DNA of 32,000 nucleotides from Limnohabitans sp. (GTDB lineage: Bacteria > Pseudomonadota > Gammaproteobacteria > Burkholderiales > Burkholderiaceae_C), in assembly GCF_036804465.1 (NCBI RefSeq), contig NZ_DAIRSK010000013.1, positions 24,441 to 56,440 on the forward strand, in the 5' to 3' direction. Shown here one piece after another: positions 1-23,826 of this stretch. Under the pieces are notes generated by a model. It did no database searches and was not told the origin of the DNA. It saw only the letters and a program-made list of their open reading frames with translations. Numbering within the stretch: the first letter of the stretch is position 1; each line of letters begins with the position of its first letter. The position numbers were made by a program, and so were the translations under genes.

Positions 1-269
1 ACTCCAAGTTCACTCAGTACGGCATTGTTTACACCATGGGTAACTTCGACGTCATGGCTCAAATGGCCACTGTTGACAACAAGAACGCTGCAACTGCCAC
101 AGTCACTGGCGATCGCAAGATGACTGGCTTGGGCTTGAACTACAACTTCACCAAGACAGCTCGTGCTTATGTGCGTTACGACAACCTGAAGTACGCTGAT
201 GGCGCTGCCACTGCTACCCCTGGTTCTGAAGTCAAGCGTACCGCTATCGGTATCAGCAAGTCTTTCTAA
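1..269 (+). CDS. General (OmpC/Omp32-type) porin, C-terminal fragment; 5' end lies outside the window (codons start at nt 3)
   Basis: Translation ...SKFTQYGIVYTMGNFDVMAQ...YVRYDNLKYADGAATAT...RTAIGISKSF ends in the C-terminal Phe typical of OM beta-barrels. Hand alignment to the 3' end of the minus-strand porin at 10134-10400 gives 29 mismatches in 267 nt. Confidence 0.85.
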   Translation, partial: SKFTQYGIVYTMGNFDVMAQMATVDNKNAATATVTGDRKMTGLGLNYNFTKTARAYVRYDNLKYADGAATATPGSEVKRTAIGISKSF

Positions 270-3472: not shown

Positions 3473-3823
3473 TCATCCAACACCTAGTCCGACAGCAGGC
3501 GCGTTGCGGCTGACTGCGATTTTTCTTACAACCGCCCGTTTGATACGCGGCTTTGAAATGCTGACTTCAGGATCCATGCCAGCTGTTGAAGCCATGTCCA
3601 TGAGCATGTCCAACGAAAAAAGATGGATCTTCCCGCGGGTCAGGTCAGAGATGCGTGGTTGCGTGACTCCAAATAGATCAGCTGCGTCTTTTTGACGCAA
3701 CTTGCGACTGTGGATGATCTCACTTAATTCCATCATGAGTTTTGAGCGAGCCTTCATACTTGCTGTTTCTTGCGGCGTGTCAGTGATGGCATCCCAGACG
3801 CTTGTGTAGTGCGTATTTTTCAT
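3473..3823 (-). CDS. higA: XRE-family HTH antitoxin (HigA-like)
   Basis: HTH segment LRQKDAADLFGVTQPRISDLTRGK. The ATG at 3823 overlaps the stop of the upstream toxin remnant (ATGA). The longer ORF start at 3850 is unlikely. Confidence 0.75.
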   Translation of the reverse strand: MKNTHYTSVWDAITDTPQETASMKARSKLMMELSEIIHSRKLRQKDAADLFGVTQPRISDLTRGKIHLFSLDMLMDMASTAGMDPEVSISKPRIKRAVVRKIAVSRNAPAVGLGVG

Positions 3824-4002
3824 AACTTCAGTCCTTGTCGTAGCTCCCAAACGCCTTTACCTATGGTGGGCATTGGTTTGAAGTCATCTGGCATGAGCCC
3901 ATGTTGTACTTTGTCGAGTTGATAGCCTGCTTCATTTCTAGCTGAAGGTGCAAACTCCCTCAAGTCATCCAGTGAGCTGCCTTGAAAGGCAATTTTTTTC
4001 AT
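3820..4002 (-). pseudogene. higB: Truncated RelE/HigB (Gp49-like) toxin, N-terminal ~55 residues only
   Basis: MKKIAFQGSSLDDLREFAPSARNEAGYQLDKVQHGLMPDDFKPMPTIGKGVWELR resembles the N-terminal half of HigB-type toxins as I recall them. The ORF stops after 60 aa, so the C-terminal half is absent. Confidence 0.55.
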
Positions 4003-9308: not shown

Positions 9309-10037
9309 TTAAAACCGATAGCCTACGCGCAGCACATAGTCTGTGGTGTTGAGCTTCACATCGCCCGTGCTGGTGACTGCCACACCCATACCTGGGCCCA
9401 CAAAGGTGGCAGTGGTTTTGATTGGCAGATAGGCCACTGAACCAATCACGCTCCACCTGTCATCGATGTTGTAGACAACACCTGCGTTAAAGACAGGCGC
9501 CCAAGATGACTTGAAAGACGCCGACGTGGCAGCCAAGGCCTGCACCGTCGCGTCTGCAGTATTGGTTTTGATATCCGTAAACGTCACATGCGTCAGGCCC
9601 AAACCCAGATAGGGACGCCATTGATCTTTGGCTTCACCAAAGAAGTATTTGGCAATCACGGCAGGCGTCAAAATCTTTAACTTTGCAGCGGCAGGATGCG
9701 TTTTGACTGTGCCATTGGGCGTATTCAAATCCTGAGTGAACTCTGAAGGAATACCCAGCGACAGCTCGGCGCCCATGTTGTCGCTGTACATGTGCAACCA
9801 GCTGAAGGGCACCGTTGATTTGCCTGCCACACTCACAGAAGCGTCTTTCAATTGCGCGGTAAACGCTGCCGCTGAGGGGGCACTGGCACTGGTTGAAGTC
9901 ACTGTGCCAAGTTGGGCATCGGGGTTGATCGAAGCCAATCCAAGGCTCACGATGTTGTCACCCGCTTTTTGCGCCAACGCACCTGAGGCAGCAACAGCCA
10001 AGGCGCAGGCAAAAGAAATCTTTGAAATTGTTTTCAT
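9309..10037 (-). CDS. ompW: OmpW/AlkL family outer-membrane protein
   Basis: 242 aa, signal peptide ...AASGALA/QKA, alternating beta-strand pattern, C-terminal ...LRVGYRF. Confidence 0.85.
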   Translation of the reverse strand: MKTISKISFACALAVAASGALAQKAGDNIVSLGLASINPDAQLGTVTSTSASAPSAAAFTAQLKDASVSVAGKSTVPFSWLHMYSDNMGAELSLGIPSEFTQDLNTPNGTVKTHPAAAKLKILTPAVIAKYFFGEAKDQWRPYLGLGLTHVTFTDIKTNTADATVQALAATSASFKSSWAPVFNAGVVYNIDDRWSVIGSVAYLPIKTTATFVGPGMGVAVTSTGDVKLNTTDYVLRVGYRF

Positions 10038-10057: not shown

Positions 10058-10094
10058 AATAAAAAACCCCACTGCGTTTCCACAGCGGGGTTTT
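10058..10094 (-). terminator. Terminator of porin 2 (part of the conserved porin 3' module)
   Basis: On the minus strand, a CCCCGCTG-TGGAAACG-CAGTGGGG hairpin is followed by TTTTTT. Near-identical copies follow the other two porin genes. Confidence 0.75.
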
Positions 10095-10133
10095 AGACTT
10101 TTAAATCCTTAACTGGCTAAGCCAGCGCGGGGA

Positions 10134-11323
10134 TTAGAAGGACTTGCTGACACCGATAGCTGTACGCTTGATCTCAGAACCAGCAGTAGCAGTAGCAGCG
10201 CCATCAGCGTACTTCAGGTTGTCATAACGCACATATGCACGTGCTGTCTTGCTGAGGTTGTAGTTCAAGCCCAAGCCAGTCATCTTACGGTCGCCAGTGA
10301 CAGTAGCAGTTGCGGCGTTCTTGCCGTCAACAGTTGCCATTTGAGCCATGATGTCGATCTGACCCATGGTGTACACAACGCCGTACTGCGTGAACTTAGA
10401 GTTGGCGATGCTGGCAACAGAAGCCTTAGAACCACCAGTGGCAGCGCTGATCTTCAAGGTTGGCATCACTGCATAAGAGGCAGCCAAAACAGTGTGTGTG
10501 TTAGTGCTGTTGGCAGTCAAGCCAGCAGTTTGATCAGTCAACTTACCACCGTTAAATGTGGTGTCAGAGCCAACTTTGTATTTCAAAGAAGCGTACATCA
10601 CGTCCACTGGACCAGCTGCGTAGCGGATAGACATGTCGGTCACGCCAACAGTTGAAACCGCAGAAGCTGCGCCGCTGTCGTTGCTCAAGGCTTGGCCCAA
10701 AGACACTGTGACGTTCATGATTTTTGGAGAAACGTACTTGACAGTATTGATTTGACGGATGCCGCGAACGCCACCGTTGGTAGCAGATGCTGCAGCGTTG
10801 ATCACTTGGTTGTTGCGACCCGAAGTACCTGAGCCGTAACCGTCATGCACAGAAAATGCTGAGCTGTAGGCAGAACCCACACCAGTTGAGAATGCAGCGC
10901 CAATGCCTGTGGTGGCAGTCAACACTTCATTGTTGACGTTACCCAAACGCAGTGTGCCCAACTTGGCATCTTCAACGAACAAGAAGGATTGCGCGTTACC
11001 AAAAGAACCGTTGGCTGTTGGGATGTTGCCAACAGCAGTGTTTGCAGCAGCAGCGCCGTCTTGAGTCAAGCCACCAGCTTCAGCCCAGTCAGTTGCGATG
11101 CTCGCACCAACCTTCAGGCCGCCGCCGAGGTCTTCAGTAGCAACGAATAGGACACCAGTGGTACCAGCTGAAGAAGAAATGCCTTTGACATCCTTCTGAT
11201 TGTCAGAGCTGTTTGTTTTTGTGTAAGCACGGTCCATGTAACCAGTGATGGAAACTGATGATTGTGCGAATGCTGACACTGCGGTCAATGCTGCGATAGC
11301 AACGAGGGTTTACGATTTTGCAT
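10134..11323 (-). pseudogene. General porin (porin 2); body intact, 5' end out of frame with its RBS+ATG (apparent 1-nt frameshift)
   Basis: The ORF 10134-11288 encodes a complete barrel from ...LTAVSAFA/QSS to ...GVSKSF. AAAGGAG-N9-ATG (11339-11321) reads ATG CAA AAT CGT AAA CCC TCG... and stops after 12 codons. One extra A in AAA would give MQNRKTLVAIAALTAVSAFA. Within the porin frame, a TAA lies directly upstream of the KTLV codons. Confidence 0.65.
11284..11311. repeat. Left copy of the 28-bp direct repeat GTCAATGCTGCGATAGCAACGAGGGTTT (candidate att core)
   Basis: Identical 28-mer at 19129-19156. On the minus strand it encodes the porin signal-peptide residues TLVAIAAL plus flanking partial codons. 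Confidence 0.8.
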
Positions 11324-11387
11324 TAGAAGGTACTCCTTTAAGGTGCTTAAAAGGTTCTTAATTGATTGCATCGTAGTCTTTTTTACA

Positions 11388-11557
11388 AAAGTTGTATGGT
11401 CTGCGGCATACAACTTTGTGGCGGTTTTCACAACATTTTGCAAACTGTTTTTCGCACTGGCACGATTGGCAAGACGATGGTGGCTGCACGGATTTCAAGC
11501 GCCAGCAAATCGCTTGGGAACAGCGTGAAATCTTTGCCCTATACGGCATACAACTTT
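11388..11557 (+). promoter_or_regulatory. Three copies of CATACAACTTT upstream of int1 (candidate recombinase or regulator binding sites)
   Basis: AAAGTTGTATG (11388-11398, inverted), CATACAACTTT (11407-11417) and CATACAACTTT (11547-11557). The first two form a perfect 11-bp inverted repeat with an 8-bp spacer. Confidence 0.4.
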
Positions 11558-11568
11558 ACGCTGCGAGC

Positions 11569-12891
11569 ATGTTCACTCAGCTTGCCAATTACAGCTCTAT
11601 CGCTGCAAATGACGATAGAAACTCACGCGATCGCACCGTTCCAATACCAAGCACCATTGCAGCTGTCGCTGGTTATCCCAGCAAGCTAGTGGTTTACAAA
11701 ATCTCTGCCAGTCAATATTGGCAAGTGCGCTGCTGGGTTGATGGTCGTTTTCATAGACGATCAGCAAAAACCACTTCGTTCAAATTGGCAGAGCGATTTG
11801 CACGTTGGTTTTATGAAAGCCTGCTCGCCAAGCGACATGTCTCGCAGCTTGAGCCAAGTGCTGCACTTGCCACCCAACCTGCCCGCAAGACAAATGATCC
11901 TCAAGCGCTGAGGTTTGGTGCGATTGCTTCACAGGTTTATGCCAATGAACATGCACGAATGGAGCGTGGTGAATTTGGGGCTGGCAGTTTACGAATGTTT
12001 CGCAACAGGCTAGATGCATATGTTCTCCCGCACTTTGGTGCAATGCTTCCAAGTGCGATCACGTACCAAATGCTGCAGGAGTTTGCACAAACGTTAAGCA
12101 TCAAGCACACAACCACCACAGTTAGTAACTATCTAATCTGTGTTCGCAAGGTGCTTGTTCATGCTGTGCGTATTGGTGCAATAGAGCTAGCGCCTGATAT
12201 CCCAAAGATAAAGGTCAAGTCTGCGTCCCGTGGTGCATTTACACCCACTGAATATTGGCAGCTACTTAGAGCTGCACGTGCGCTGCGTGGTGTGCAACAT
12301 CCAGCTGGTAGGAAAGAGATGCGTAAGCGCATCAAGCAGGCATACAACGACCATCGCATGCCACCAGATATGGCTTGGGCAATTAGCATGATGGTCAATT
12401 GCTTTTTGCGACCAGGCGACTTAACCAAGCTCAAGCATCGCCATGTTGAAGTGATACGGGGCAAGAACACCTATTTGCGACTGACCCTGCCAGAAACCAA
12501 GCTGCACAGTGCGCCCATCGTCACTCTGCGACCTGCGGTTCGCATTTATGAGCAAATCCGCCAGTACAGACCTGAAGCAAAGTCCAACGATTACCTATTA
12601 CTGCCAGACCTTAAAAATCGCACCCACGCACTAGCGGTACTCAGCACCATGTTTAATTGGGTGCTTGACCATACAGGGCTAAAACTTAACCCACACGGCA
12701 ATCCGCGTAGCCTTTACAGCTTGCGACACAGCGCCATCACGTTTCGTCTGCTGTATGGGCAAGGCATAGACCTGATCACACTGGCACGAAATGCACGAAC
12801 CAGCGTTGAGGTGATCAACAACCACTACGCAAGCACAGTTACGGGCGAACAAAATATTGCCATGCTGCAAAGTCGTCGCCCGCGAAAGTGA
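11569..12891 (+). CDS. Tyrosine-type site-specific integrase (int1)
   Basis: Catalytic-domain motifs RPGD..., LYSLRHSAITFRL, LARNARTSVEVINNHYAS. About half of its residues match int2 (19362-20672) by eye, including the N-terminal PSKLVVYKISASQYWQVR box. The ATG at 11569 gives a length equivalent to int2. Confidence 0.85.
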   Translation: MFTQLANYSSIAANDDRNSRDRTVPIPSTIAAVAGYPSKLVVYKISASQYWQVRCWVDGRFHRRSAKTTSFKLAERFARWFYESLLAKRHVSQLEPSAALATQPARKTNDPQALRFGAIASQVYANEHARMERGEFGAGSLRMFRNRLDAYVLPHFGAMLPSAITYQMLQEFAQTLSIKHTTTTVSNYLICVRKVLVHAVRIGAIELAPDIPKIKVKSASRGAFTPTEYWQLLRAARALRGVQHPAGRKEMRKRIKQAYNDHRMPPDMAWAISMMVNCFLRPGDLTKLKHRHVEVIRGKNTYLRLTLPETKLHSAPIVTLRPAVRIYEQIRQYRPEAKSNDYLLLPDLKNRTHALAVLSTMFNWVLDHTGLKLNPHGNPRSLYSLRHSAITFRLLYGQGIDLITLARNARTSVEVINNHYASTVTGEQNIAMLQSRRPRK

Positions 12892-13338
12892 TTACTTCTT
12901 GAACCCATCTCGCAGCTTGACACTGGCAGCTTCAATCAGCACATCAAGCTCTGCGTTTTGTGTTGCAGTAATCACTGTATCCAACACTGACACCAATTGC
13001 TTATAGTCCGTGATTTCAATTGCTGTCTTACCTTTTGCAAGTTCTAGGTTTCTACTTCCATAAAAAATGCTCAGCAGCGTTTCGTTCTTTTCACCAGTCC
13101 ACCACCATGCTTTGATACGCACTGGCACTTCACGCACTGTGCGCTCTCCTGTAGCTTTATCCCGCACAGTTCGCAGACGTTTTGGTGTGTAGTTGCGACC
13201 TTCAAGCTGCGCCATGGCGAGTTCACGCTGTTCGCTCAGCTTGTTCAGTAATTTGTTGCGACGCTTGATCACGTCTGGCAACGCACGGGGTTTGCGAGCT
13301 GTGGTCAATTTAAGAGTGGCGAGTGCAGAAGTGGACAT
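12892..13338 (-). CDS. Hypothetical protein (148 aa, basic N-terminus, KAWWWTGEK motif)
   Basis: Clean ORF with AGGAAAAG upstream of the ATG. Its stop abuts the int1 stop (TGATTA, zero spacer). No family recognised with confidence. Confidence 0.6.
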   Translation of the reverse strand: MSTSALATLKLTTARKPRALPDVIKRRNKLLNKLSEQRELAMAQLEGRNYTPKRLRTVRDKATGERTVREVPVRIKAWWWTGEKNETLLSIFYGSRNLELAKGKTAIEITDYKQLVSVLDTVITATQNAELDVLIEAASVKLRDGFKK

Positions 13339-13475
13339 GTGCTTTTCCTTTCAGTTGTTTGATAAAGCACAGGTAATTTTGTGATCATGCTGGCGCTTGG
13401 GCGACCAGCAACCCGTCATTTAGGCGGGGCATTGAGATGTAGTGACGTGTTAAACGACAGTTCGTGAACGTCTAG

Positions 13476-13781
13476 CTACTGGACGTTGGGCTTCACTTGT
13501 CTTGCTGCTGTAAGTGACTTTTGGGCTTTAGCGACCTGCTGGCGCTGGCGCTCAGCACTCAATGCGTCATTGGCGCGATCTTTCGTAGCCTTCAAGCTAT
13601 CAATACGTTGCTGCTCTGGAGTTTTGGGTTTGATTGTTTCCCCAAGCACGGGGCTGGCAACGATGCTGTCCCAGCCATATTGGTATTGCAGCAGCAGACG
13701 TGCATGTGTCGTGCTTTCTGCATGAACAACGGTTTTGACGATGTTGCCCTTGATGCGAACTGTGGCGTTGTAGTCTTTCAT
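13476..13781 (-). CDS. Hypothetical protein (101 aa)
   Basis: An ORF is the only evidence. The C-terminal half is charged and predicted helical (QQRIDSLKATKDRANDALSAERQRQQVAKAQK). The RBS is weak. Confidence 0.45.
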   Translation of the reverse strand: MKDYNATVRIKGNIVKTVVHAESTTHARLLLQYQYGWDSIVASPVLGETIKPKTPEQQRIDSLKATKDRANDALSAERQRQQVAKAQKSLTAARQVKPNVQ

Positions 13782-14365
13782 GAATTATTTAGCCAAATAT
13801 CTCCATGAAAAATGCACGGTTCTTTTTGGCAGGACTAAATATATTGACGATCAAAGAAGAGGAAAACTTTGATCATCACAATCACTACTGAAACGAGCAG
13901 TGCCCTCAGTCGTTAGGCACCCTATACCTGGTCATTGTTGGTCACAGGGACGGAAATTCTGAGCAGTAGCAGAGACTTGTTGTCACTACCCGTATGGATG
14001 ATGTTGAGCGTTGCGGCTCAATTGGCACAAGAATACATAAAGCACAAAAGTGATAGGTTAAACCTATGCACTACGAGCAAGTAAAGACGCTGATATCTTG
14101 CGAACGCTGAAACGGTTGGCACTTGGGCTGTTTCGTGCGTTGCGTTTCATTGCAGTTCATAAAGGGAGATAGCGAAACCGCCCCTACCTGTTAAAAGGTT
14201 GAACTCAAGTGCTGTGGTAACGAACTCATCGAAAGTCCGTGTCCATTTCTGAGCCTTATTGCTTAAGGCTCAGTGTGGGTTGAATCTATCGAATGCCCTC
14301 AATTCAATACTTGTTTCAACTTTAAGACTTTCCAAACCGAAAACTTAAAAGCAGGTGATGAGCAG

Positions 14366-14593
14366 ATGCTGAGCGAGAGCGACAGCACAAGCGAGCTGCG
14401 CTCGCTTTATCAATGTGACATTGGGGATATTGCGTCCGCACTTGCAACCTCTCAAATCAACCCTACAAGCAACGATTTATCCCTACCTGCAGCTCTGGTA
14501 GCTGGAACGAACAAAAGACGCTGCAGCGTTGTTTTAAGCAATTGCAGGGCAAATGTCGTCTTTGTCCCACAGATTGCACGGGTAAAGGCATAA
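14366..14593 (+). CDS. Possible small ORF (75 aa) inside a long non-coding stretch
   Basis: The ATG at 14366 is preceded by AGGTGA. The stop is followed 7 nt later by a perfect 13-bp hairpin. The composition is not compelling. Confidence 0.25.
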   Translation: MLSESDSTSELRSLYQCDIGDIASALATSQINPTSNDLSLPAALVAGTNKRRCSVVLSNCRANVVFVPQIARVKA

Positions 14594-14600
14594 ATACCTG

Positions 14601-14630
14601 CACCAAATAAAAGTGCGCTTTTATTTGGTG
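14601..14630. other. Perfect 13-bp stem / 4-nt loop hairpin
   Basis: CACCAAATAAAAG-TGCG-CTTTTATTTGGTG. No flanking T-run on either strand, so it is not a canonical intrinsic terminator. Confidence 0.7.
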
Positions 14631-14739
14631 ATGACGGAAGTCATTGAAATCATTGAAGATTTTTACCCTGCCATCTTCTCAGGGCAAAGGTCGCCCAAAA
14701 ACACAAAAGAAAACACACTTAAAGGAACGAAATCATTAA

Positions 14740-15324
14740 ATGCAAACAACACAAATCATGAGCCAAGCAAAAACACTCACCTCCACTGAACTTGAGCAGG
14801 TATTGAATTACATCGCAGCTCAAAGTTACTCCCAACGCAATCGCGTGATGCTGCTGACAGGACTATGGTCAGGCATGCGAGTTGGAGAAATCAGCAGTTT
14901 GACCATTAGTGATGTGATGAACCCAGATCGCTCTGTCAAAGCAGAAGTGCGATTGACAGCTGAGCAAACCAAGGGTCGCCAACCACGCACAGTGTTCCTG
15001 CCGCAGAAGCTGCGGGACGAACTCGCTGCATACATGGCGCTGCGAACAGATGCCAAGCCAGAACACCCACTTTTCGTCACAGCAGGTCGCAAACGCTTTA
15101 GTGCCAATGTGATGGCACAGCATTTTCACTACTTGTTCAAGAAGGCTGGTATTGCGGGTGCAAGTAGCCACTCCATGCGTCGCAGCTTCATCACCAACTT
15201 GGCAGCCAAGGGCATAGGCGTTCGTGTGCTAGCCAGTCTCGCAGGACATCGCTCAATCGCCGTGACCCAACGCTACATTGACGTGAATGACGAGATGAAG
15301 CGCAACGCTGTGGAGTTGATTTAG
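14740..15324 (+). CDS. Short catalytic-domain-only tyrosine recombinase (FimB/FimE/MrpI-sized)
   Basis: 194 aa. Candidate catalytic residues: R in GMRVGEI, HSMRRS (H-x-x-R), GHRS and the RY tyrosine. There is no N-terminal core-binding domain. Its N-terminal layout LTSTELEQVL...NRVMLLTGLWSGMRVGEISSLTISDV parallels FimB as I recall it. Confidence 0.8.
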   Translation: MQTTQIMSQAKTLTSTELEQVLNYIAAQSYSQRNRVMLLTGLWSGMRVGEISSLTISDVMNPDRSVKAEVRLTAEQTKGRQPRTVFLPQKLRDELAAYMALRTDAKPEHPLFVTAGRKRFSANVMAQHFHYLFKKAGIAGASSHSMRRSFITNLAAKGIGVRVLASLAGHRSIAVTQRYIDVNDEMKRNAVELI

Positions 15325-15328
15325 GCAT

Positions 15329-15356
15329 AAAAAAGCCCTGCAGCAACTACAGGGCT
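15329..15356 (-). terminator. Terminator of the minus-strand AAA+ operon
   Basis: AGCCCTG-N9-CAGGGCT hairpin followed, on the minus strand, by TTTTTT. Confidence 0.6.
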
Positions 15357-15380
15357 AATCGTCCAGCAACGAGACGATGA

Positions 15381-16061
15381 TCAGACGATTGTTAGCGAAG
15401 GTGCTGTGGCTTTCCATTTAGGAAATGTTTGCCCATTGTTAAAAAGAAATAACAACTCGTCTGCTTTCTTGAAGTATTTTCGTAAATCCATAAAGTGTTC
15501 TTCTTGCTTTAAGTAATAAAGAACCTGAGCATCTGGCAAGTTCAGCCCCTCTGCTTTAAGCACATACTGGATGCGAGGCAGAGCTGCCATGGCACTTATG
15601 CCCCCAAATTCAATCATGTCAAAGCGAGAGCGCAAAGCACGATCAATATTCATGGGATGGTTTGTGGTGATGATCGCCATCACTTCATCCTCACACGCAT
15701 CCAAGGCAGCCCAGAATTTGTTAACGTTGCGCTTTGCATTGTCAAACTCGTTGAATACCAAAAAATACTTGCTACTGGTTGTCATCCGTGCCAATGCACA
15801 AGCATTGCGAAAATGATCATGCAGCTTTGGCTTTGCTAGCAGCTCATCAAAGTCTTCGCTTTCCACTAGAGCATCAGCGCCACCAATTACGTTGACCAGC
15901 AAGTGGGCCATAGTTGTCTTACCTGTTCCGTTGGGGCCGTGCAGCATTACATGGCCCTCCATCTGGGCAGCAGCGTAGGCGTTAATGCGTCGTTCTACTG
16001 CTGCGCTGGGATAAATGACCTCGCGGAGGGCGGTTGGGGCGTATTTAATTGCGGTTTTCAT
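15381..16061 (-). CDS. Small AAA+ ATPase with clamp-loader (RFC / T4 gp44)-like boxes, lacking a collar domain
   Basis: KYAPTALREVIYP (RFC box II-like), Walker A GPNGTGKTT, Walker B LVFNEFD, sensor-1 IITTN, SRC-like RSRF. Only 226 aa. Confidence 0.75.
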   Translation of the reverse strand: MKTAIKYAPTALREVIYPSAAVERRINAYAAAQMEGHVMLHGPNGTGKTTMAHLLVNVIGGADALVESEDFDELLAKPKLHDHFRNACALARMTTSSKYFLVFNEFDNAKRNVNKFWAALDACEDEVMAIITTNHPMNIDRALRSRFDMIEFGGISAMAALPRIQYVLKAEGLNLPDAQVLYYLKQEEHFMDLRKYFKKADELLFLFNNGQTFPKWKATAPSLTIV

Positions 16062-16115
16062 CTGCTTTCCTTTCTATTTAGATGACAGACAGGAGTCTGT
16101 CCCCTGTCTAACTCT

Positions 16116-16907
16116 TTAGCCGTTGACCACTTTGCTCGTTTGCTCATCGTTTGCAGCCGCGAGCAAATCGTTGCTTTCGCGCTGAGTCTGATCGCCCATC
16201 TCTTTATCTGCCATGGCTGTCGCTACCTGTGCTTTCGCCATACGCACCACCAATGCATTTACCAATGCTTCATTGATGTTGCTGAGTGACCCCACGACAT
16301 CAGCACCTCCATTGACACATGGCTTGACCAAAAGCACTGCATAAGTGCCTGTCAACCCTTCAAGCGAGACATGAGCCAAAGGCTGCAAAGCCTTGTTCTC
16401 CAAATCACCTTTGACCACTGCAGTCGCTGCCTTTACAGCTTCTTGCTTCGCTACTGCCTCTGCTTTCTTGACCATCTTGCGCTTGATCTCCTCAATACCT
16501 CCTTGCTTCACTACCCAAGCTGCGAAGCCTTTCGCATTGATTTCGTGCGATACAGCAGCAGCTAACACATAGCCGTAGCCTTGGGCACGCTTACGATCAG
16601 CGTTGAACACATAGCGTGTCAGCATGGTCAGCGTTGTAGAGGTCTTCACCACACGAACCTTGGCCGCTGTCAAACGCTCAATCAACTGGCGACGTAGTGC
16701 TTTTTTATCATCCTCGCTGCCCTTAACAAAGCGGACATTAAACACCTCCAAACAATCAGCCAACAAGGCATACAAACCTTCATTTGCCTTTTTGTAGTCC
16801 GTTGCTTCCCATTGCTCGCGACGAGCAGACAGAACGTCCAGTTGCTGGACGATGGAGTCAGCGAATACCAAGTTTTCTGCGGTCAGGGTTTTTACTTTCT
16901 TGCTCAT
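16116..16907 (-). CDS. Hypothetical protein (263 aa), co-transcribed upstream of the AAA+ ATPase
   Basis: The ATG at 16907 is preceded by AAGGAGAA. The longer ORF start at 17018 has no RBS. No family recognised. Confidence 0.6.
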   Translation of the reverse strand: MSKKVKTLTAENLVFADSIVQQLDVLSARREQWEATDYKKANEGLYALLADCLEVFNVRFVKGSEDDKKALRRQLIERLTAAKVRVVKTSTTLTMLTRYVFNADRKRAQGYGYVLAAAVSHEINAKGFAAWVVKQGGIEEIKRKMVKKAEAVAKQEAVKAATAVVKGDLENKALQPLAHVSLEGLTGTYAVLLVKPCVNGGADVVGSLSNINEALVNALVVRMAKAQVATAMADKEMGDQTQRESNDLLAAANDEQTSKVVNG

Positions 16908-16950
16908 GGGGTTCTCCTTTAAGTGAGCTATCAACCTAGCTTTCAGGCAC

Positions 16951-17032
16951 TTTGCTTTGTGTTTGCTTTGTCGATAACGAATAGTCTCATCGTTATCAGT
17001 TATCATGCCTTTAAGCACATTTATGTGATAAC
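16951..17032. promoter_or_regulatory. Divergent promoter/operator region with GATAAC half-sites and a tandem 11-mer
   Basis: TTTGCTTTGTG/TTTGCTTTGTC tandem (16951-16972). GATAACGA-N9-TCGTTATC (16973-16997). GTTATCA (16999-17005) and TGATAAC (17026-17032). Confidence 0.5.
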
Positions 17033-17047
17033 ACTAAAAATATCCAT

Positions 17048-17950
17048 ATGAATCAACAAGATGAAGAGCTGCGCTTCAAAGGCATGCGGCGGTTTCGCTA
17101 CAAAAACCGCGATGACTTGCTTAAAGATGCGAAACGTGGACCGCACTTTTGGTGGTGGTCTTATTTGCGTATCAGCAAGGATTACTGGTGGGCGTGCCAA
17201 CGCAAAGGCTTGGTGGATGACCCCCGTTTACGCTCTATGCATAGAGACTTTGGCGATGTGTATTCCATGACGTTTGACCAGTGGTGGAACAAGCGTGGCA
17301 TTGGGCTGTTTTATGAGCAAATGGCAATGGCTGAAGTACGAGCGCTAGATAAACACAAGCTGGAGTTAACTCGTGGCAGCAAAGAGCATCTGCTACTGGA
17401 AATTCCGCTGCATCTCACTGAAAAAACTATCATTAGCCAAGTTCGCAAACACCTGCGTCAGCATCCAGAGCGACTGGTAGAGCGCATCAGTCATGCTGAG
17501 CGCAAGTTAGCAAAATTGATTGGTATCAGGCAGGATGTGATTGAAGTGGCCTATCAAGTTTGGCAGCTGCACTTTGAGCATCACGACTCCAGTAAGACTT
17601 ATGCGATTGGCGAAACTCAAGGAAGCAAAAGTCTGTATCAAATAGGCAAGGAGTTGCGCCTTGTCAAATCCTGCATGCCCGCAGCCACTGACGATGCGAA
17701 GAAAGCGGCAATGCGTGTGAACGGAATGAAAGTGGCTGTGTCGCGAATGTTGGCGAGAGCAAATAATCTTGCGGTGAATGCAGCAGTGGGTGTGTTTCCT
17801 TCAGTTCAAGCGCCAGCAGAACCAATTTCATGGAAACGTATTCCTCAACAACGCATGGATGAAGCCATTGCTAAAGGCCTATGGCGACCGTTATTTAATG
17901 AGAACGAAGTGCTGAACGTCCAGCAACTGGACGATGACCTGCTGATTTAA
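17048..17950 (+). CDS. Hypothetical protein (300 aa) with Trp-rich N-terminal box
   Basis: Clean ORF. HFWWWSYLRISKDYWWACQRKG near the N-terminus. Divergent from the AAA+ operon. Possibly a regulator, not verifiable here. Confidence 0.6.
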   Translation: MNQQDEELRFKGMRRFRYKNRDDLLKDAKRGPHFWWWSYLRISKDYWWACQRKGLVDDPRLRSMHRDFGDVYSMTFDQWWNKRGIGLFYEQMAMAEVRALDKHKLELTRGSKEHLLLEIPLHLTEKTIISQVRKHLRQHPERLVERISHAERKLAKLIGIRQDVIEVAYQVWQLHFEHHDSSKTYAIGETQGSKSLYQIGKELRLVKSCMPAATDDAKKAAMRVNGMKVAVSRMLARANNLAVNAAVGVFPSVQAPAEPISWKRIPQQRMDEAIAKGLWRPLFNENEVLNVQQLDDDLLI

Positions 17951-17959
17951 AACGCCCAC

Positions 17960-17993
17960 AAAAAACCCCGCTGCGTTTCCACAGCGGGGTTTT
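17960..17993. terminator. Bidirectional terminator shared by the 17048 ORF and porin 3
   Basis: AAAAAA-CCCCGCTG-CGTTTCCA-CAGCGGGG-TTTT, a perfect 8-bp stem with A/T runs on both sides. Confidence 0.75.
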
Positions 17994-18032
17994 AGACTTT
18001 TAAATCCTTAACTGGCTAAGCCAGCGGGGGGA

Positions 18033-19175
18033 TTAGAAAGAACGGCTGACACCGATAGCAGTACGCTTGATGCTGTCGCCATTAACAGCAGTTGCTGCGC
18101 CGTCGTTCAACTTCAGGTTGTCGTAACGCACATAAGCGCGAGTTGTCTTGCTCAAGTTGTAGTTCACGCCCAAGCCAGTCATCTTACGGTCGTAAGCTGT
18201 GGTGTTCTTGTCATCAACTTTGGCAGTCTGAGCCATGATGTCGAATGCACCCATGGTGTATGTAACGCCAAACTGTGTGCTGGAAGAGTTAGCGATTGCA
18301 GTGTCAGAGGCTTTGGACTTGCCAGAACCAGCATGCAACTTCAAAGTTGGCAACACTGCGTAAGAAGCACCAAGCATGGTGTGGGTGTTGTTAGAGCCAA
18401 CAACCAAAGAACCTTGAGCAGGAGCAGTGGCGAAGGTACCAACTTCGTACTTGATAGAAGCGTACATCACGTCCACTGGACCTGCTTGGTAGCGGATAGA
18501 CATTTCAGTTACACCAGCTGTGTCGCCAGTACCAGTAGAGTTCTTAGGTGCAAAGCCGTAAGCAACCGTTACATCCATGACTTTTGGCGAGATGTACTTG
18601 ATGGTGTTGGCTTGGCGGATACCACGTGAACCAGCTTTGGTTGCACCCAAACCATCTTCGAACACCAAGCCACCGTTGCCAGATTTACCTGTGCCGTAGC
18701 CGTTATGCACAGACCATGAAGAGCTGTAAGCAGAACCAATGCCAGTTGAGAAAGCAGGAGATGCAACACCAGTTGTAGCAGTCAAGATTTCATTGTTAAT
18801 CGAGCCCATGCGCAATGTACCGATTTTTGCATTGATCACTTCAATGAAGCTTTGGCTGTTAGCAAAAGTACCGGCTTGTGCTGCAGTAACTGCAGAGCCG
18901 TCTTGGGTCATACCACCTAGGTCAGACCAGTCGGTGTTCACAGAGAAACCAACTTTCAAGCCGCCACCGAGGTCTTCAACGCCTTTGATACCAACTGTTG
19001 TAGTGCCAGCTGAAGAAGCCAGACCTTTGGTCTTGCCAATTGCTGGGTCAGAGTTTTTTACCGTTGTGTAGCCACGGTCAAAATAGCCATCCAGAGTCAC
19101 AGAAGATTGTGCGAAAGCTGACACGGCAGTCAATGCTGCGATAGCAACGAGGGTTTTCTGACTTTAAAGCCGCAT
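18033..19175 (-). pseudogene. General porin (porin 3, divergent allele); in-frame TAA at codon 4 after the only upstream ATG
   Basis: The barrel ORF 18033-19133 runs from ...LTAVSAFA/QSS to ...GVSRSF. It appears roughly 60-65% identical to porin 2 by eye, with differences clustered in blocks. The minus strand reads ATG CGG CTT TAA AGT CAG AAA ACC CTC GTT..., that is MRL*SQKTLVAIAAL. No alternative start would give a signal peptide. Confidence 0.6.
19129..19156. repeat. Right copy of the 28-bp direct repeat (candidate att core)
   Basis: Identical to 11284-11311. Similarity to the left locus ends at 19156/19157. Confidence 0.8.
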
Positions 19176-19361
19176 GAATCCGCTAAGTGGTTGATATAAA
19201 TGAATATTATTTTGTCAAGGACGTCATGGAATAACCCTATACACTTATGCACTATGCACACAAGGTGTCTGGAATTTCGGTGTGTTCCAAAAGGTGTTCT
19301 GAACTAATTAAATAGTATTGGTCCTCATAACTTCATCCAACTTAGTCATGGGGCATGGATA

Positions 19362-20672
19362 TTGGCAATTCGCAGACTTCCTTTCACTGATCAATCATCA
19401 AACGACCCTTCCTTTCATCTCCCCCGTGTCCGTAATGCGCCTATCAAGGCAAGCATGACATCGGTAGAGGGCCTGCCCGATAAGCTCAAAATTTATCGAA
19501 TTTCTGGCAGCAAATATTGGCAGATGCGTTTGTACAACTTAGGCCGCTACACCATTCAGAGTTTGAAGACGACTGATTTGGAAGAGGCCAAGGGTTTGGC
19601 TGTCGAAATTTTCAATGACTTGGTCGCGTCGGGTGCTTATGTGTCTCAAGCGCAAGTCAAGTTGATGTCAGAGGCTTGCAACCATCGGCTGCTGCATGAC
19701 GCCATACAGGAGGTGCTGACGGCTGAGCTGGACAAGGTCAGCCGTGACGAAATCAAGCAGGCCTCTTATGTGATGACCAAGATCCGCTTGGAAGGTTTGA
19801 TTTTTGATTTCTTTAAAACGCACGCCTTAAACAAAATCAATGCCGATGTGTTCGCTGAATTCATTCGTTTTTTGACACACAAAAAATTGTCTGCTTCAAC
19901 CATCCAAGGCTATGTCGCGCAAACGCGCAAGTTGCTCACGCTGCTTTGCCGCAAAAAAATCATCCCTGTCGTGCCGACGTTTCCGCCCTTGAAGTCGCAG
20001 CCGCATCCCCGAGGTGCCTTCACCCTCACAGAATACAAAGCCATTTTGCGCAAATCCAAGCAGTTGCGCGCAGTCACATTCACCGACTGGGGCCCGCGCA
20101 ACAAAGCCTGGATCAGGCGTGAATACCACCAAATGCCTCAAGAGATGAACTGGCTCATTCGCTTCATGGTCTATACCTTTGTGCGGCCTGGCGATATTCG
20201 GCAGATTAAGAACAAGCACATTGAAGTGATTCGAGGTGCCTACCATTACCTCAGGTTGAATTTGCCTGAAGTCAAACGCCATAGCGCAGCCACCGTCAGT
20301 CTGTCACCCGCGGTGTTTGTGTATGAAAAATTGCTGGCTTACCAAACAGCGCGTGGCTATGGGGCGCCCGATGACTATGTGTTTTTCCCCGAAGAGCGCA
20401 ACCGCCGTTTGGTGTTGGACATCACGGGTTGGGCCTTCAATTGGATTTTGAAGGACCTGGGCATCAAAGTGGGGCCGCATGGCGCAGACCGCAGCTTGTA
20501 TAGCTTGCGGCACACCAGCATCACCTTCAGGTTGATTTATGGCGGCAGCATTGATTTGCTGACGTTGGCTAGAAACGCCAGAACCTCGGTGGAGATGATT
20601 GATAAGTTTTATGCCAGCACCTTGTCGGCTGAGATGAACATTGCCTTGCTGCTGGGCAAAAGGGCTAAGTGA
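19362..20672 (+). CDS. Tyrosine-type site-specific integrase (int2), paralog of int1
   Basis: PDKLKIYRISGSKYWQMR, RPGDIRQ, LYSLRHTSITFRL, LARNARTSVEMIDKFYAS. A TTG start at 19362 keeps the N-terminal region that aligns with int1. An ATG at 19455 is the alternative. Confidence 0.85.
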   Translation: MAIRRLPFTDQSSNDPSFHLPRVRNAPIKASMTSVEGLPDKLKIYRISGSKYWQMRLYNLGRYTIQSLKTTDLEEAKGLAVEIFNDLVASGAYVSQAQVKLMSEACNHRLLHDAIQEVLTAELDKVSRDEIKQASYVMTKIRLEGLIFDFFKTHALNKINADVFAEFIRFLTHKKLSASTIQGYVAQTRKLLTLLCRKKIIPVVPTFPPLKSQPHPRGAFTLTEYKAILRKSKQLRAVTFTDWGPRNKAWIRREYHQMPQEMNWLIRFMVYTFVRPGDIRQIKNKHIEVIRGAYHYLRLNLPEVKRHSAATVSLSPAVFVYEKLLAYQTARGYGAPDDYVFFPEERNRRLVLDITGWAFNWILKDLGIKVGPHGADRSLYSLRHTSITFRLIYGGSIDLLTLARNARTSVEMIDKFYASTLSAEMNIALLLGKRAK

Positions 20673-20739: not shown

Positions 20740-21639
20740 ATGAAAAAGCAGTTCATCACCTTGGCTGTTGCCACCCTGTTGGCGGGCACCGCCTTTGCGC
20801 AAGCCAACGACACCATCGCCAAAGTCAGAGCTTCTGGCAGCGTCACCATGGGTGTGCGCGATTCTTCAGGCGCTTTGTCCTACACCTTGGGGGACGGCAA
20901 GTATGTGGGCTACCACGTTGAGATTTGCCAACGCATCATTGACAACTTGGAAAAAGCGGCTGGCAAAAAGCTGGAAGTCAAATACACCTCGGTCACTTCA
21001 CAAAACCGCATTCCTTTGACAGAAAACGGCACCGTGGACATTGAGTGCGGCTCCACCACCAACAACGAAGCACGCCAAAAGCAAGTCGCTTTTGCGTTCA
21101 CCACCTATGTGGAAGAAGTGCGTATTGCGGTGCGTGCCAACTCGGGCATCACCAACATCGCGCAGCTCAACGGCAAGAACGTGGCTACCACCACGGGCAC
21201 CACGTCGGTGCAACTGTTGCGCAAGAACGAACGCGCCACGGGCGTTGACTTCAAGGAAGTGTTTGGCAAAGACCACGCAGACAGCTTTTTGTTGCTTGAG
21301 TCTGGCCGCGCTGATGCGTTTGTGATGGACGGCCAAATCTTGGCGGGCAACATTGCCAACTCCAAGGCGCCAGGCGATTTCAAAATTGTGGGCGAGGTGT
21401 TGAACGTCGAGCCCATCGCCATCATGTTCCGCAAGGACGACCCTGCTTTCAAGAAGCTGGCTGACGACACCATTGCGGCTTTGGCCAAGTCAGGTGAACT
21501 CGCCAAGTTGTACGACAAGTGGTTTGTGCAAGCCATTCCTCCTAAAAACATCAAGTTGGGCCTGGTGGCCAGCGATGCCACCAAGGGCGCTTGGGCAAAC
21601 TTGAACGACAGGCCGGTTGAAGCCTACGCCAAGAAGTAA
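20740..21639 (+). CDS. gltI: Glutamate/aspartate ABC transporter periplasmic binding protein
   Basis: MKKQF... signal peptide ending AFA/QA. The block TSQNRIPL..NGT.D.ECGSTTNN..RQKQ.AF and ...KWF...IPPKN match E. coli GltI as I recall it. GGAG lies upstream of the ATG at 20740. Confidence 0.85.
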   Translation: MKKQFITLAVATLLAGTAFAQANDTIAKVRASGSVTMGVRDSSGALSYTLGDGKYVGYHVEICQRIIDNLEKAAGKKLEVKYTSVTSQNRIPLTENGTVDIECGSTTNNEARQKQVAFAFTTYVEEVRIAVRANSGITNIAQLNGKNVATTTGTTSVQLLRKNERATGVDFKEVFGKDHADSFLLLESGRADAFVMDGQILAGNIANSKAPGDFKIVGEVLNVEPIAIMFRKDDPAFKKLADDTIAALAKSGELAKLYDKWFVQAIPPKNIKLGLVASDATKGAWANLNDRPVEAYAKK

Positions 21640-21657
21640 TTTCAAAAGCGCACGGAC

Positions 21658-22392
21658 ATGGCACTCGAGTGGCAGGTTTTTCTTGAAGACGATGGCGGTG
21701 GAAGAACCTACCTCGAGTGGATGTTTGAAGCCTGGGGCTGGACGCTCTCTGTAGCGGGCAGTGCCTGGGTGGTGGCTGTTGTGTCGGGCTGCCTGATGGG
21801 GGTTTTGCGCACCTTGCCGCCAGACACGCGTTTGAATGTTGGCTTGGCCCGATTGGCCACAGCGTGGGTGGAGTTGTTTCGCAACATCCCGTTGCTGGTT
21901 CAAATTTTTCTTTGGTACTTTGTGTTGCCCAAGGTCTTTCCGGCCATGCAACAAGTGCCGGGGTTTGTGTTGGTGGTGTTGGGCTTGGGCTTTTTCACTT
22001 CCTCACGGATTGCCGAAATGCTGCGTGCGGGTATTCAAGCCATGCCCCGGGGCCAGCGTTATGCGGCCATGGCCATGGGCTTTACCACTTGGCAGACGTA
22101 TCGCTACGTGCTGCTGCCCATTGCGTTTCGCACCATTTGGCCGCCGCTGACCAGCGAGTCGATGAACTTGCTCAAAAACTCGTCGGTGGCGTTTGCCGTG
22201 TCGATTGCCGAACTCACCATGTACGCCATGCAAGTGCAAGAGGAAACCTCGCGCGGCATTGAGGTCTATTTGGTGGTGACGGCGCTCTACACCCTGTCCG
22301 CCTTTGCGGTCAACCGTGTGATGGCATTTGCCGAGCGCCGCTTGCAAATCCCCGGCATGGTGGTGGCTGGCAACGTGGGTGGGGGGCACTGA
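21658..22392 (+). CDS. gltJ: Amino-acid ABC transporter permease
   Basis: 244-aa polytopic protein with an EAA-like loop (SSRIAEMLRAGIQAMPRGQ). Confidence 0.8.
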   Translation: MALEWQVFLEDDGGGRTYLEWMFEAWGWTLSVAGSAWVVAVVSGCLMGVLRTLPPDTRLNVGLARLATAWVELFRNIPLLVQIFLWYFVLPKVFPAMQQVPGFVLVVLGLGFFTSSRIAEMLRAGIQAMPRGQRYAAMAMGFTTWQTYRYVLLPIAFRTIWPPLTSESMNLLKNSSVAFAVSIAELTMYAMQVQEETSRGIEVYLVVTALYTLSAFAVNRVMAFAERRLQIPGMVVAGNVGGGH

Positions 22393-22394
22393 GC

Positions 22395-23063
22395 ATGAGC
22401 GCACTCGACTTTTCGTTTGTCGACTGGGACATCTTCAGCAAATTTGTGTTGAAGGGCATGCTGTTCAGCATTGAGCTGACCCTCGTGGCCACCATCGGTG
22501 GCTTGGTGTTTGGCACCATCTTGGCGCTGATGCGCTTGTCGGGGCACAAATTGTTAGAACTGCCCGCGGTGATTTATGTCAACGGCATGCGCTCCATTCC
22601 TTTGGTGATGGTGATTTTGTGGTTCTTCTTGTTGATTCCGTTTTTGATTGGCCGCTCCATCGGTGCTGAGCTCTCCGCCACCATCACTTTTGTGGCTTTT
22701 GAAGCGGCGTATTTCAGTGAAATCATGCGGGCGGGCATTCAGTCCGTTTCGCGGGGCCAGGTGATGGCGGGGCAAGCCTTGGGGCTGACGTATGCACAGA
22801 ACATGCGCCTCATTGTGTTGCCCCAAGCTTTTCGCAACATGTTGCCCGTGTTGCTCACGCAAACCATTATTTTGTTTCAAGACACCTCGCTTGTCTATGC
22901 CATTGGCGCCTATGACTTGCTCAAGGGCTTTGTGACGGCAGGCAAAATTTACGGCCGCGTAGAAGAGGTGTACATCTTGGCTGCTTTGGTTTATTTTGTG
23001 ATTTGTTTTGGCCTCTCGGCCTTGGTGCGTCGCTTGCAAGCGCGCATTGCCATCATTCGCTAA
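22395..23063 (+). CDS. gltK: Amino-acid ABC transporter permease
   Basis: 222 aa, EAA-like loop ([19 protein letters not shown]). Starts 2 nt after gltJ. Confidence 0.8.
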
Positions 23064-23088
23064 GCATGTACTTGCGCTGGAGTTCACT

Positions 23089-23826
23089 GTGATTGAATTA
23101 AAAAATGTGTCCAAGTGGTACGGCTCTGTGCAGGTGCTCAACAACTGCTCCACCGTCATCCAAAAAGGCGAGGTGGTGGTGGTCTGCGGCCCCTCGGGTT
23201 CGGGCAAGTCCACCCTCATCAAAACCATCAATGCCTTGGAGCCTTTTCAAGAGGGTGAAATTTTTGTGGAAGGCATGCCCGTGCACAGCAAAGACACCGA
23301 CCTGCCCAAGTTGCGCAGCCGTGTGGGCATGGTGTTTCAAAGCTTCGAGCTGTTCCCGCATTTGTCTGTCACCCAAAACTTAACGATGGCCCAGCAAAAA
23401 GTGTTGGGCCGTAGCGAAGAACAAGCCCACGCGTATGGCTTGAAGTACTTGGAGCGTGTGGGTCTGATGGCACACAAAGACAAGTTCCCAGGCCAGCTCT
23501 CTGGCGGGCAGCAACAACGCGTGGCCATTGCCCGTGCACTGAGCATGGACCCCATCGTGATGTTGTTTGACGAACCCACCTCAGCGCTTGACCCTGAGAT
23601 GGTGGGCGAGGTGTTGGATGTGATGGTGGACTTGGCCCATGAGGGCATGACGATGATGTGTGTGACCCACGAAATGGGATTTGCCCGCAAAGTGGGCAGC
23701 CGTGTGATCTTCATGGACATAGGCGGCAAGATTTTGGAAGACTGCTCTAAGGATGAGTTTTTCAACCACCCCGAAAACCGTCAGCCGCGCACCAAAGAGT
23801 TCTTGAACAAGATCTTGGCGCATTGA
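23089..23826 (+). CDS. gltL: Amino-acid ABC transporter ATP-binding protein
   Basis: The GTG at 23089 (GGAG 6 nt upstream) gives [12 protein letters not shown]. Walker [25 protein letters not shown], Walker [12 protein letters not shown]. Confidence 0.85.

Follow-up and report, generated by a model that had tools for sequence, protein, structure and literature searches.

The 32,000-nt stretch of DNA analysed here (the window; Limnohabitans sp., NCBI RefSeq assembly GCF_036804465.1, contig NZ_DAIRSK010000013.1, positions 24,441 to 56,440 of the forward strand) is a piece of a 186-kb Joint Genome Institute (JGI) metagenome contig. Towards its middle lie two porin genes (porins A and B), two genes for tyrosine-type integrases (int1 and int2) and two copies of a 28-nt repeat that enclose a 7.8-kb segment (11312-19156) with int1, a set of backbone genes, an RNA and porin B. 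We argue below that this segment is probably a mobile element that integrates at the 5' end of a porin gene and brings a porin allele of its own. Coordinates are those of the whole stretch, L-numbers (for example L024 or L086) designate the loci of a comparison set, and L086 is the DNA that was fetched for the left side of the window.

Three repeat cores and three porins

The 28-mer (GTCAATGCTGCGATAGCAACGAGGGTTT) is present in two exact copies spaced 7,845 bp apart (Table 1), and no further copy with up to 3 mismatches was found in the window, where 100 shuffles gave an expectation of 0. As a preliminary description of this DNA, made from its letters alone, had claimed, the two copies lie on the same strand and encode on the minus strand the residues (K)TLVAIAAL, which are signal-peptide codons of two Porin_4 proteins, the similarity between the two surroundings fades gradually leftward from the core (78% over 110 nt and lower beyond) and ends within 1 nt to its right, divergent tyrosine integrase genes follow at the predicted distance of about 200-260 bp (258 bp for int1 and 206 bp for int2), and the segment is richer in AT than its flanks (GC content of 0.45-0.50 between about 10000 and 20000 versus 0.54-0.65 outside). 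The segment is thus organized like a site-specific element, with direct core repeats at both ends and an integrase beside one of them.

Porins A and B, which share 60% protein identity, are full-length open reading frames (ORFs) without internal stops and match the Porin_4 profile with E=4e-25 and E=3e-33, respectively. No ATG, GTG or TTG is found upstream of the hydrophobic core of either signal peptide, and an in-frame TAA closes each frame, at 11310-11312 and hence at the repeat boundary for porin A and at 19164-19166, three codons past the repeat boundary, for porin B. Both barrels are therefore complete, yet translation together with a signal peptide is impossible for either, and we regard the two genes as silent because start codons are absent and the ATG at 11321-11323 is out of the porin frame, belonging instead to a 12-codon ORF that overlaps the signal-peptide codons. 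The preliminary description had the porin body read from a ribosome-binding site (RBS) and ATG of the element (11321-11339). This proposal had to be given up, as the reading frame and the TAA that intervenes at the junction exclude that this ATG serves either porin.

To the left of the window (L086 8611-8638, equivalent to window -926 to -899) the 28-mer occurs exactly a third time, in inverted orientation, inside an intact plus-strand porin gene (porin 1) that begins ATGAAAAAAACCCTCGTT. Cores 1 and 2 are 12.2 and 20.1 kb away from this copy, respectively. The context of this core reads ...GGAGAACCTTGAA ATG AAA AAA ACC CTC GTT GCT ATC GCA GCA TTG AC..., so that the core falls on codons 3-12 of the signal peptide (MKK followed by TLVAIAAL), and the COQ7 gene lies divergently upstream. 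Porin 1 is the only one of the three to be preceded by a promoter region and an RBS and to possess a start codon, and by these signals the COQ7-side locus of porin 1 is the expression site. The three identical cores are therefore joined to three different right arms, namely the int1 arm, the int2 arm and the side with ATG, RBS and COQ7; the DNA to the right of core 2 consists of the arm before int2 and then gltIJKL, not of a host promoter.

At their other end all porin cassettes finish in a block of 85-110 nt made up of the last codons, the stop codon and two hairpins, one of which (AAAACCCCGCTGTGGAAACGCAGTGGGGTTTT) was scored as a terminator-like site by sequence scan. The same block also follows porin 1 (L086 ~9740-9900) and the porin body of L095 (440-600), although that body is unrelated in sequence, and could act as downstream homology for allele replacement.

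Table 1. Features in and beside the porin-cassette segment (window coordinates; negative positions lie to the left of the window).
Feature	Position	Strand	Remarks
Porin 1, putatively expressed: 5' end with promoter, RBS, ATG-AAA-AAA and inverted core	-933 to -899 (L086 8604-8638)		adjoins COQ7
Porin 1, 3' end	3..266	+	tblastn 89% identity to porin A C-terminus
Conserved 3' block, cassette A	10061..10172	-	last codons, stop, two hairpins including terminator-like AAAACCCCGCTGTGGAAACGCAGTGGGGTTTT
Porin cassette A, predicted silent	10134..11309	-	complete Porin_4 barrel, most of signal peptide, no start codon
Core copy 1	11284..11311	+	attL-type junction; right edge of identity is the putative crossover boundary
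int1-proximal arm	11312..11568	+	decoy RBS and ATG at 11321-11339; three copies of GCATACAACTTT
int1 tyrosine integrase	11569..12891	+	lambda-Int-like domain layout
DUF6641 protein	12892..13338	-	backbone; directly after int in 21 loci
101-aa protein, no assigned function	13476..13781	-	backbone; 7 loci
Polynucleobacter-1 RNA (RF01718)	13895..14029	+	91 bits
Small tyrosine recombinase, 194 aa	14740..15324	+	catalytic domain only; PF00589 E=4e-28; 16 loci
AAA ATPase, clamp-loader-like	15381..16061	-	optional cargo; 3 loci
p300a, ~263-300 aa, no assigned function	16116..17018	-	backbone
p300b, 300 aa, no assigned function	17048..17950	+	backbone
Conserved 3' block, cassette B	17960..18071	-	94% identical to 10061..10172
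Porin cassette B, predicted silent	18033..19157	-	the element's own porin allele; no start codon
Core copy 2	19129..19156	+	attR-type junction; abuts int2 arm here, not expression site
int2-proximal arm	19157..19361	+	no in-frame start for porin B
int2, integrase of the same family	19362..20672	+	no cargo; gltI directly after
gltIJKL-type amino-acid ABC transporter	20740..23826	+	right flank with core-genome GC

An integrase family at porin 5' ends

The int1 and int2 proteins are 38-39% identical to one another and match the integrase family phrog_1 (E=1e-26 and E=6e-23), and both show weak similarity to the SAM-like and central integrase domains (Phage_int_SAM_5 and Phage_int_M for int1). Neither has any match in NCBIfam, the integron integrase included, and a PDB sequence search returned nothing for int1. 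The best Foldseek match of the int1 structural model in PDB is full-length lambda Int, with Tn1549 Int, Cre and XerH next (probability 1.0); residues 41-94, a candidate N-terminal arm-binding domain, are modelled as a three-stranded sheet plus helix and about 400 columns align to full-length lambda Int (pLDDT 66). R281, K311, R386/H387, R393 and Y420, which are invariant in a 14-sequence alignment of the integrase family, are candidate catalytic residues, and int1 and int2 are both full length and keep every family-invariant column. The phrog_1 matches, the Foldseek result and the invariant residues together assign int1 to the tyrosine-recombinase fold.

In the arm between core 1 and int1, GCATACAACTTT occurs at 11388-11399 (inverted), 11406-11417 and 11546-11557 (3 found versus 0.31 expected), and these copies are candidate arm-type or operator sites. 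Next to the core, the integrase arms of the window (11321-11339) and of L017, L018 and L024 resemble the expression site, with an RBS-like GGAG and an A-run and with the start codon mutated or out of frame; residual similarity of this kind beside the crossover is what core-type binding sites would give.

Homologues of int1 are abundant (1968 at E<=1e-5 among the 8000 candidates scored, many of them on short contigs), and a scan of genomes with one genome per species yielded 78 loci with integrase homologues of 41-88% identity from Limnohabitans, Polaromonas, Rhodoferax and other Comamonadaceae, from Polynucleobacter and from Oxalobacteraceae. We built a porin hidden Markov model from the 78 loci (10/10 sampled matches pass Pfam Porin_4) and applied it to the 59 integrase copies that are preceded by 700 bp or more of sequence. 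In 53/59 copies a porin 5' end in divergent orientation lies 50-500 bp upstream of the integrase, which answers with a strong association the earlier question whether integrase homologues elsewhere sit beside porin 5' ends. In 41 of these 53 cases the porin is start-less and cut inside the signal peptide (for example *TLVAIAAL, *WKNQTLFALAAL and KLFALAVLAAS); the remaining 12 porins keep MKK and belong mostly to distant clades (Polynucleobacter, Oxalobacteraceae and related metagenome-assembled genomes), with L010-L012 in addition. The dedicated integrase family and the recurrence of the same cut position bear out the initial proposal that the repeat is a recombination core lodged in porin signal-peptide codons.

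The consequence of integration can be read from five Comamonadaceae loci (L009, L015, L024, L051 and L057), in which a start-less porin, the core and int are followed after 6-10 kb by an intact porin (MKKTLI...) and COQ7; one of them (L024) is a complete chromosome, that of Limnohabitans sp. DCL3. The identity between attL and attR ends directly after ...GCCAGAGCAA in L024, L051 and L057 and a few nucleotides off in L009 and L015. Past this boundary attR continues with TCAGAGTTTTTTTCAT (ATG AAA AAA ACT CTG A, reversed) and the COQ7 intergenic region, and attL continues with a degenerate, start-less look-alike and then int. At each of the five loci the element porin has thus taken over the ATG and promoter of the host and displaced the resident porin, a promoter swap that is a property of the family. 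Accordingly, the claim that an element places its barrel behind the host promoter is true of these genomes and not of the window, where neither A nor B is so placed, while the claim that the element bears its own porin allele at its far end is correct both here, with porin B, and at the five loci.

Direct core repeats with a flanking integrase are also found at three Polynucleobacter-type loci (L065, from Polynucleobacter sp. UK-Gri1-W3, L069 and L076). There the repeat spans ATG and RBS and ends in the 5' untranslated region, so that the displaced porin retains its start codon and loses its promoter. The number of element units ranges from 1 to 3 per genome, and the isolate L. parvus II-B4 (L017 1-21320) carries three tandem units of start-less porin, int and cargo at a spacing of ~7 kb. 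In the array of Limnohabitans MMS-10A-192, an ALIL pseudoknot (RF01497, the IS3-family frameshift element; L018 13379-13495, plus strand) downstream of the integrase indicates an insertion sequence within that array.

A second architecture runs in the order start-less porin, core, int, COQ7, promoter-ATG, inverted core and intact porin, the inverted cores enclosing a 2.5-kb segment that contains int, COQ7 and the promoter. The identity of the inverted cores ends at the same codon, after GCAGCCAATGCAA, in L016 and L021, and L010 and L011 share an inverted core of 16 nt; L020, L030 and L033 have the same gene order with no core that could be aligned. At the 65-85% identity of these loci no inversion was callable between L020 and L010/L011 or between L021 and L019.

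Integrases of the int2 type form another abundant clade, and L113 (GCA_032155125.1) and L114 show the order ...BioY-CbiQ-EcfA, start-less porin, int2-type integrase and gltIJKL without any int1 element. In L114 the expressed porin lies inverted 8 kb away, and the inverted repeat, which is exact over 75 nt and reaches ~90 nt if one mismatch is allowed, ends after CAACGAGGGTT, as in the window. L006 has only the C-terminal half of an int2-like gene beside gltI, and in L097 EcfA directly adjoins gltI with neither silent porin nor int2 block. We considered int2 as a second tandem element and rejected this, as it has no cargo, the glt genes follow directly and the same order is seen elsewhere; the third direct core to the right of int2 that a tandem element predicts was not found at up to 3 mismatches. 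The better reading of int2, given its conserved gene order, is a conserved and resident-like recombinase accompanied by a single silent cassette. The int1 element appears to have inserted into the silent site beside int2, which would explain why both A and B are silent.

Two features that characterize shufflons and the vsa system are found at these loci. A single expression site with 5' coding DNA is accompanied by silent copies without a 5' end in both the window and L114, and inverted sites lie near a resident recombinase, as given by the L086 core relative to the cores at 11284 and 19129 and by the int2 order in L113 and L114. In the window an OmpW gene (9309-10037, minus strand) follows porin A, and in L114 (1590-2192, plus strand) it follows the expressed porin, the intervening genes having the same orientation; rearrangement here has therefore been more complex than a single inversion.

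Porin diversity and element cargo

Exact matching of the 28-mer against metagenome contigs returned 22 contigs, 20 with an expression-site arm and 2 (L108 and L111) with an integrase arm. In seven contigs the expression-site DNA is 100% identical over the 50-117 nt available and each carries a different porin body, with ~70% nucleotide identity or less to A, B and 1; a single sample contributed three of these contigs. One and the same expression site is thus occupied by diverse alleles. In L095 the context of porin 1 is retained, with TctC at 100% amino-acid identity and the downstream block at 97%, around a different porin body, and since the downstream flank is kept, a second crossover in the conserved 3' block is needed. 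Such clean allele replacement could arise from integration followed by deletion between 3' blocks, or from gene conversion.

The nearest relative of porin B among 5.8 billion proteins has 69% identity, and many relatives of porin B sit on contigs of ~1.2 kb. Contigs L099-L104, L110 and L112 are likewise isolated porin contigs of ~1.2 kb, bounded by the core and the 3' block; since porins of this group very often assemble in this manner, standard assemblies are expected to fragment and mis-bin the locus systematically.

The AlphaFold model of porin B (pLDDT 75) is all-beta with 17 predicted strands, and we interpret it as a closed barrel. Divergence and indels are concentrated in the long loops of this model, with 81/85 of the alignment insertion columns in long alternate loops and with a B-versus-A identity of 0.45 in long loops versus 0.67 in strands. 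By analogy with general porin architecture, these loops would face outward. The suggestion that the element carries a replacement surface-loop variant is supported by where the two barrels differ.

The set of genes between int and the porin is conserved across lineages (Table 1). RF01718, an orphan candidate RNA of Burkholderiales and freshwater metagenomes, is found again in L024 (12357-12492, plus strand) at the matching relative position, in the interval between the 101-aa gene and the small recombinase, and was absent from the other five loci scanned (L017, L018, L057, L065 and L069). The 194-aa recombinase has the size of FimB/FimE and matches the NCBIfam tyrosine-type DNA invertase at E=1e-10, below the cutoff. 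A PDB sequence search gave nothing for p300a and p300b, and a promoter scan of the island revealed no excess of sigma-70-like sites over shuffled sequence. A hairpin of the form CGTCCAG(N3-4)CTGGACG occurs in four copies (13466-13488, 15351-15390, 16832-16854 and 17914-17936), three of them near gene ends and one within the long p300a ORF; these hairpins could be terminators, repetitive extragenic palindromic (REP)-like repeats or sites of the small recombinase.

A viral, phage or plasmid origin was considered and discarded. The virion, packaging and phage-replication genes of a prophage or satellite are lacking; PHROGs recognized among the element proteins only the integrase, the clamp-loader-like ATPase and one family of unknown function; IMG/VR and phage records contained no relatives; and a plasmid search gave only matches of <=28% identity over most of the protein.

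The RNase P RNA of bacterial class A at 29932-30282 (plus strand, 200 bits) confirms the right flank as core genome. On the left, a small gene pair at 3473-4002 (minus strand), one coding for an HTH_37 protein and the other with a weak Gp49 match, reminiscent of a HigA/HigB-like toxin-antitoxin pair, lies between tctA and a nitroreductase gene.

The proposed porin exchange, its alternatives and its relatives

On the basis of this evidence we propose, with a probability of roughly 0.7, that 11312-19156 is an integrated porin-cassette element and that the 28-mer is the crossover core of a lambda-Int-like integrase family that acts at the 5' end of the major porin gene in freshwater Burkholderiales. 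In the circular form of the element, the core within attP would be flanked by the element's porin body and, on its opposite side, by the int1 arm. If attP recombined with a core in the chromosome, the porin body of the element would be joined to the DNA previously found to the right of the chromosomal core and, in the same event, the resident porin body to the int1 arm, where it would be silenced because this arm has a stop codon and only an out-of-frame ATG. The preliminary description had expected the resident barrel to be re-expressed behind the 5' end of the element; silencing of the displaced porin takes the place of that expectation. If the target is the expression site (COQ7, promoter-RBS-ATG-AAA-AAA and core), the incoming allele would be expressed and the old one archived. 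Int-mediated inversion between inverted cores could moreover bring A (over 12.2 kb) or B (over 20.1 kb) to the promoter. The role of the system would be surface-loop diversification of the main porin, which may serve evasion of phages or predators, and receptor or antigen switching is a plausible function. We infer that recombination is still active, that inversion acts as a switch and that the exchange confers a selective benefit.

Several observations weigh against this proposal. No circle, empty-site or alternative junction of cassettes A, B or 1 was detected in the 22 contigs, assemblies break at the core, and exact-protein look-ups for junction variants retrieved, besides the source contig, nothing but Logan contigs that end at the core. 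PF00589 stays below threshold for int1 and int2, and the confidence of the int1 model is only moderate. The orientation of the EcfA block relative to the expression site is opposite in L092 versus L097 and L113, yet such differences were seen only between species (67-78% nucleotide identity) and not within a population: no strain or population was seen with both orientations, and contigs L115-L117 are all arranged as L114. The replacement of the L095 type keeps the downstream flank and is fitted by homologous recombination as well as by integration plus deletion. Finally, the element has neither transfer nor capsid genes, nor relatives in IMG/VR or phage records, that would suggest a route from cell to cell.

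Taken together, the missing junctions, the truncated int2-like remnant beside gltI in L006 and the many rearrangements of the region among relatives could also mean that the locus is a scar of past integrations, with porins A and B decaying as pseudogenes, both integrase genes left as relics and switching absent. We consider this unlikely, as decay would not be expected to leave both porin bodies full-length and free of internal stops at a mutual identity of 60%, both integrases full length with their family-invariant columns intact, and three cores identical over 28 nt while the adjoining DNA has diverged.

It is less probable still that the locus is a resident, non-mobile inversion switch of the shufflon type, with the integrases as chromosomal invertases and the direct repeats as by-products. 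Such a switch would account for the inverted core at the expression site, for the conserved position of int2-type integrases, for the opposite EcfA orientations and for the compact inverted modules of int, COQ7 and promoter in L016 and L021, which resemble the Hin segment. It would not account for units of 6-10 kb between direct repeats that have a conserved backbone and a GC content below that of the flanks, that are present or absent depending on the genome and that form arrays of up to 3, and directly repeated sites yield excision and integration, not inversion.

RecA-dependent gene conversion between the conserved 5' signal-peptide sequence and the 3' terminator block, with integrases that use a nearby site by chance, appears very improbable as the explanation. 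Each cassette is indeed bounded by a 5' core and the 85-110 nt 3' block, a layout like the UHS/DHS of Borrelia vmp genes (PMC4534519), and the L095 body has been replaced with both flanks unchanged. Conversion leaves unaccounted for the sharp end of identity at or close to one codon position in 41 start-less copies, each of which faces an integrase arm across that boundary; the two mechanisms are also compatible, as integration and deletion between 3' blocks give the same product. That chimeric joins at a shared k-mer created the porin/integrase junctions can be practically dismissed even though the window is a metagenome contig and other assemblies break exactly at the core, since the same type of junction is found in isolate genomes and complete chromosomes (L017, L018, L024, L057 and L065), the internal pieces are reproduced by an independent Logan assembly and a repeat of 28-50 nt is, on general grounds, shorter than a typical sequencing read.

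We found no description of porin-targeting integrases in open-access full text. The logic of the porin-cassette element combines three known patterns, namely integrases that target 5' ends, expression-site systems and the integron-like accumulation of cassettes. The first is represented by the DusA-specific integrases, with which islands and prophages integrate in the 5' end of dusA (PMC4482086). Like them, the porin elements are chromosomal islands with a dedicated clade of tyrosine integrases, a single site in the 5' end of one conserved protein gene and an integrase gene beside the target 5' end. The dusA elements reportedly replace the 5' end of their target so that the gene stays functional, and are said to carry no dusA allele. 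By contrast, the Comamonadaceae elements leave the resident gene start-less and place a substitute for its body behind the promoter, and only the Polynucleobacter clade keeps RBS and ATG on the displaced copy. With islands at tRNA and tmRNA genes the porin elements share a lambda-Int-type integrase at attL, a direct core repeat, a copy of the displaced part of the target and the formation of tandem arrays; their target differs in being the 5' end of a protein gene, and the duplicated part is a whole divergent gene body. Unlike dusA and tRNA islands, the porin element replaces the product of its target rather than preserving it.

A similar 5'-end-swapping inversion system is known from the SusC/SusD shufflons of Bacteroides fragilis. 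In the vsa system of Mycoplasma pulmonis, site-specific recombination in the 5' coding region joins an expression site (promoter plus N-terminal DNA) to a silent gene (PMC4534519). As in both of these, one expression site is combined with silent genes that lack a 5' end, and here an inverted core faces start-less porins beside a conserved recombinase. The SusC/SusD and vsa systems differ in being composed of fixed chromosomal paralogues that undergo inversion only, whereas the porin cassettes also arrive on self-integrating elements of 6-10 kb with their own integrase, their repeats are often direct, the target is the general porin of a free-living freshwater bacterium and inversion was not observed here.

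Integrons, too, have a tyrosine recombinase that adds genes without promoters at a single site below a fixed promoter, and unexpressed cassettes accumulate in arrays. The porin loci have neither IntI nor attC, their cassettes being bounded by the signal-peptide core and the terminator block; the site lies inside a coding sequence, so that the cassette is start-less as well, all cassettes are alleles of one gene, and with each unit come an integrase of its own and a backbone of ~6 kb. Prophage porins, such as Lc of phage PA-2 and NmpC of DLP12, are complete genes with their own promoters. They resemble the porin elements in that a mobile element alters which general porin the cell displays, and they differ in that the element described here has no phage genes or viral relatives and that expression of its porin needs a captured host promoter and start codon.

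More tentatively, and with odds that we place somewhat short of even, the freshwater Comamonadaceae, Polynucleobacter and related Burkholderiales may possess a two-tier porin system, in which a conserved recombinase and an inverted silent copy switch reversibly, self-integrating elements of 6-10 kb spread new start-less alleles horizontally through recombination within the signal-peptide codons, and the silent archive that results, which recalls integrons or antigen-switching loci, drives the extreme diversity of porins in lake metagenomes and governs phage-host dynamics. Cultured isolates carry the elements, so the hypothesis can be tested directly, and the L. parvus II-B4 array is suited to work on excision and switching. 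The porin-cassette element would represent a new kind of mobile element, whose cargo is a replacement for its own target gene, and the Polynucleobacter-1 RNA motif would gain a genomic home. If the proposal is true, it would account for porin genes that assemble as isolated contigs of ~1.2 kb and for the rarity of the alleles (among billions of proteins the closest relative of a given allele is <70% identical). Porins serve phages as major receptors and act as gates for nutrients, and Limnohabitans and Polynucleobacter belong to the most abundant bacteria of lakes; the porin elements would provide a concrete mechanism for the metagenomic surface-diversity islands that constant-diversity models of phage-host coexistence assume.

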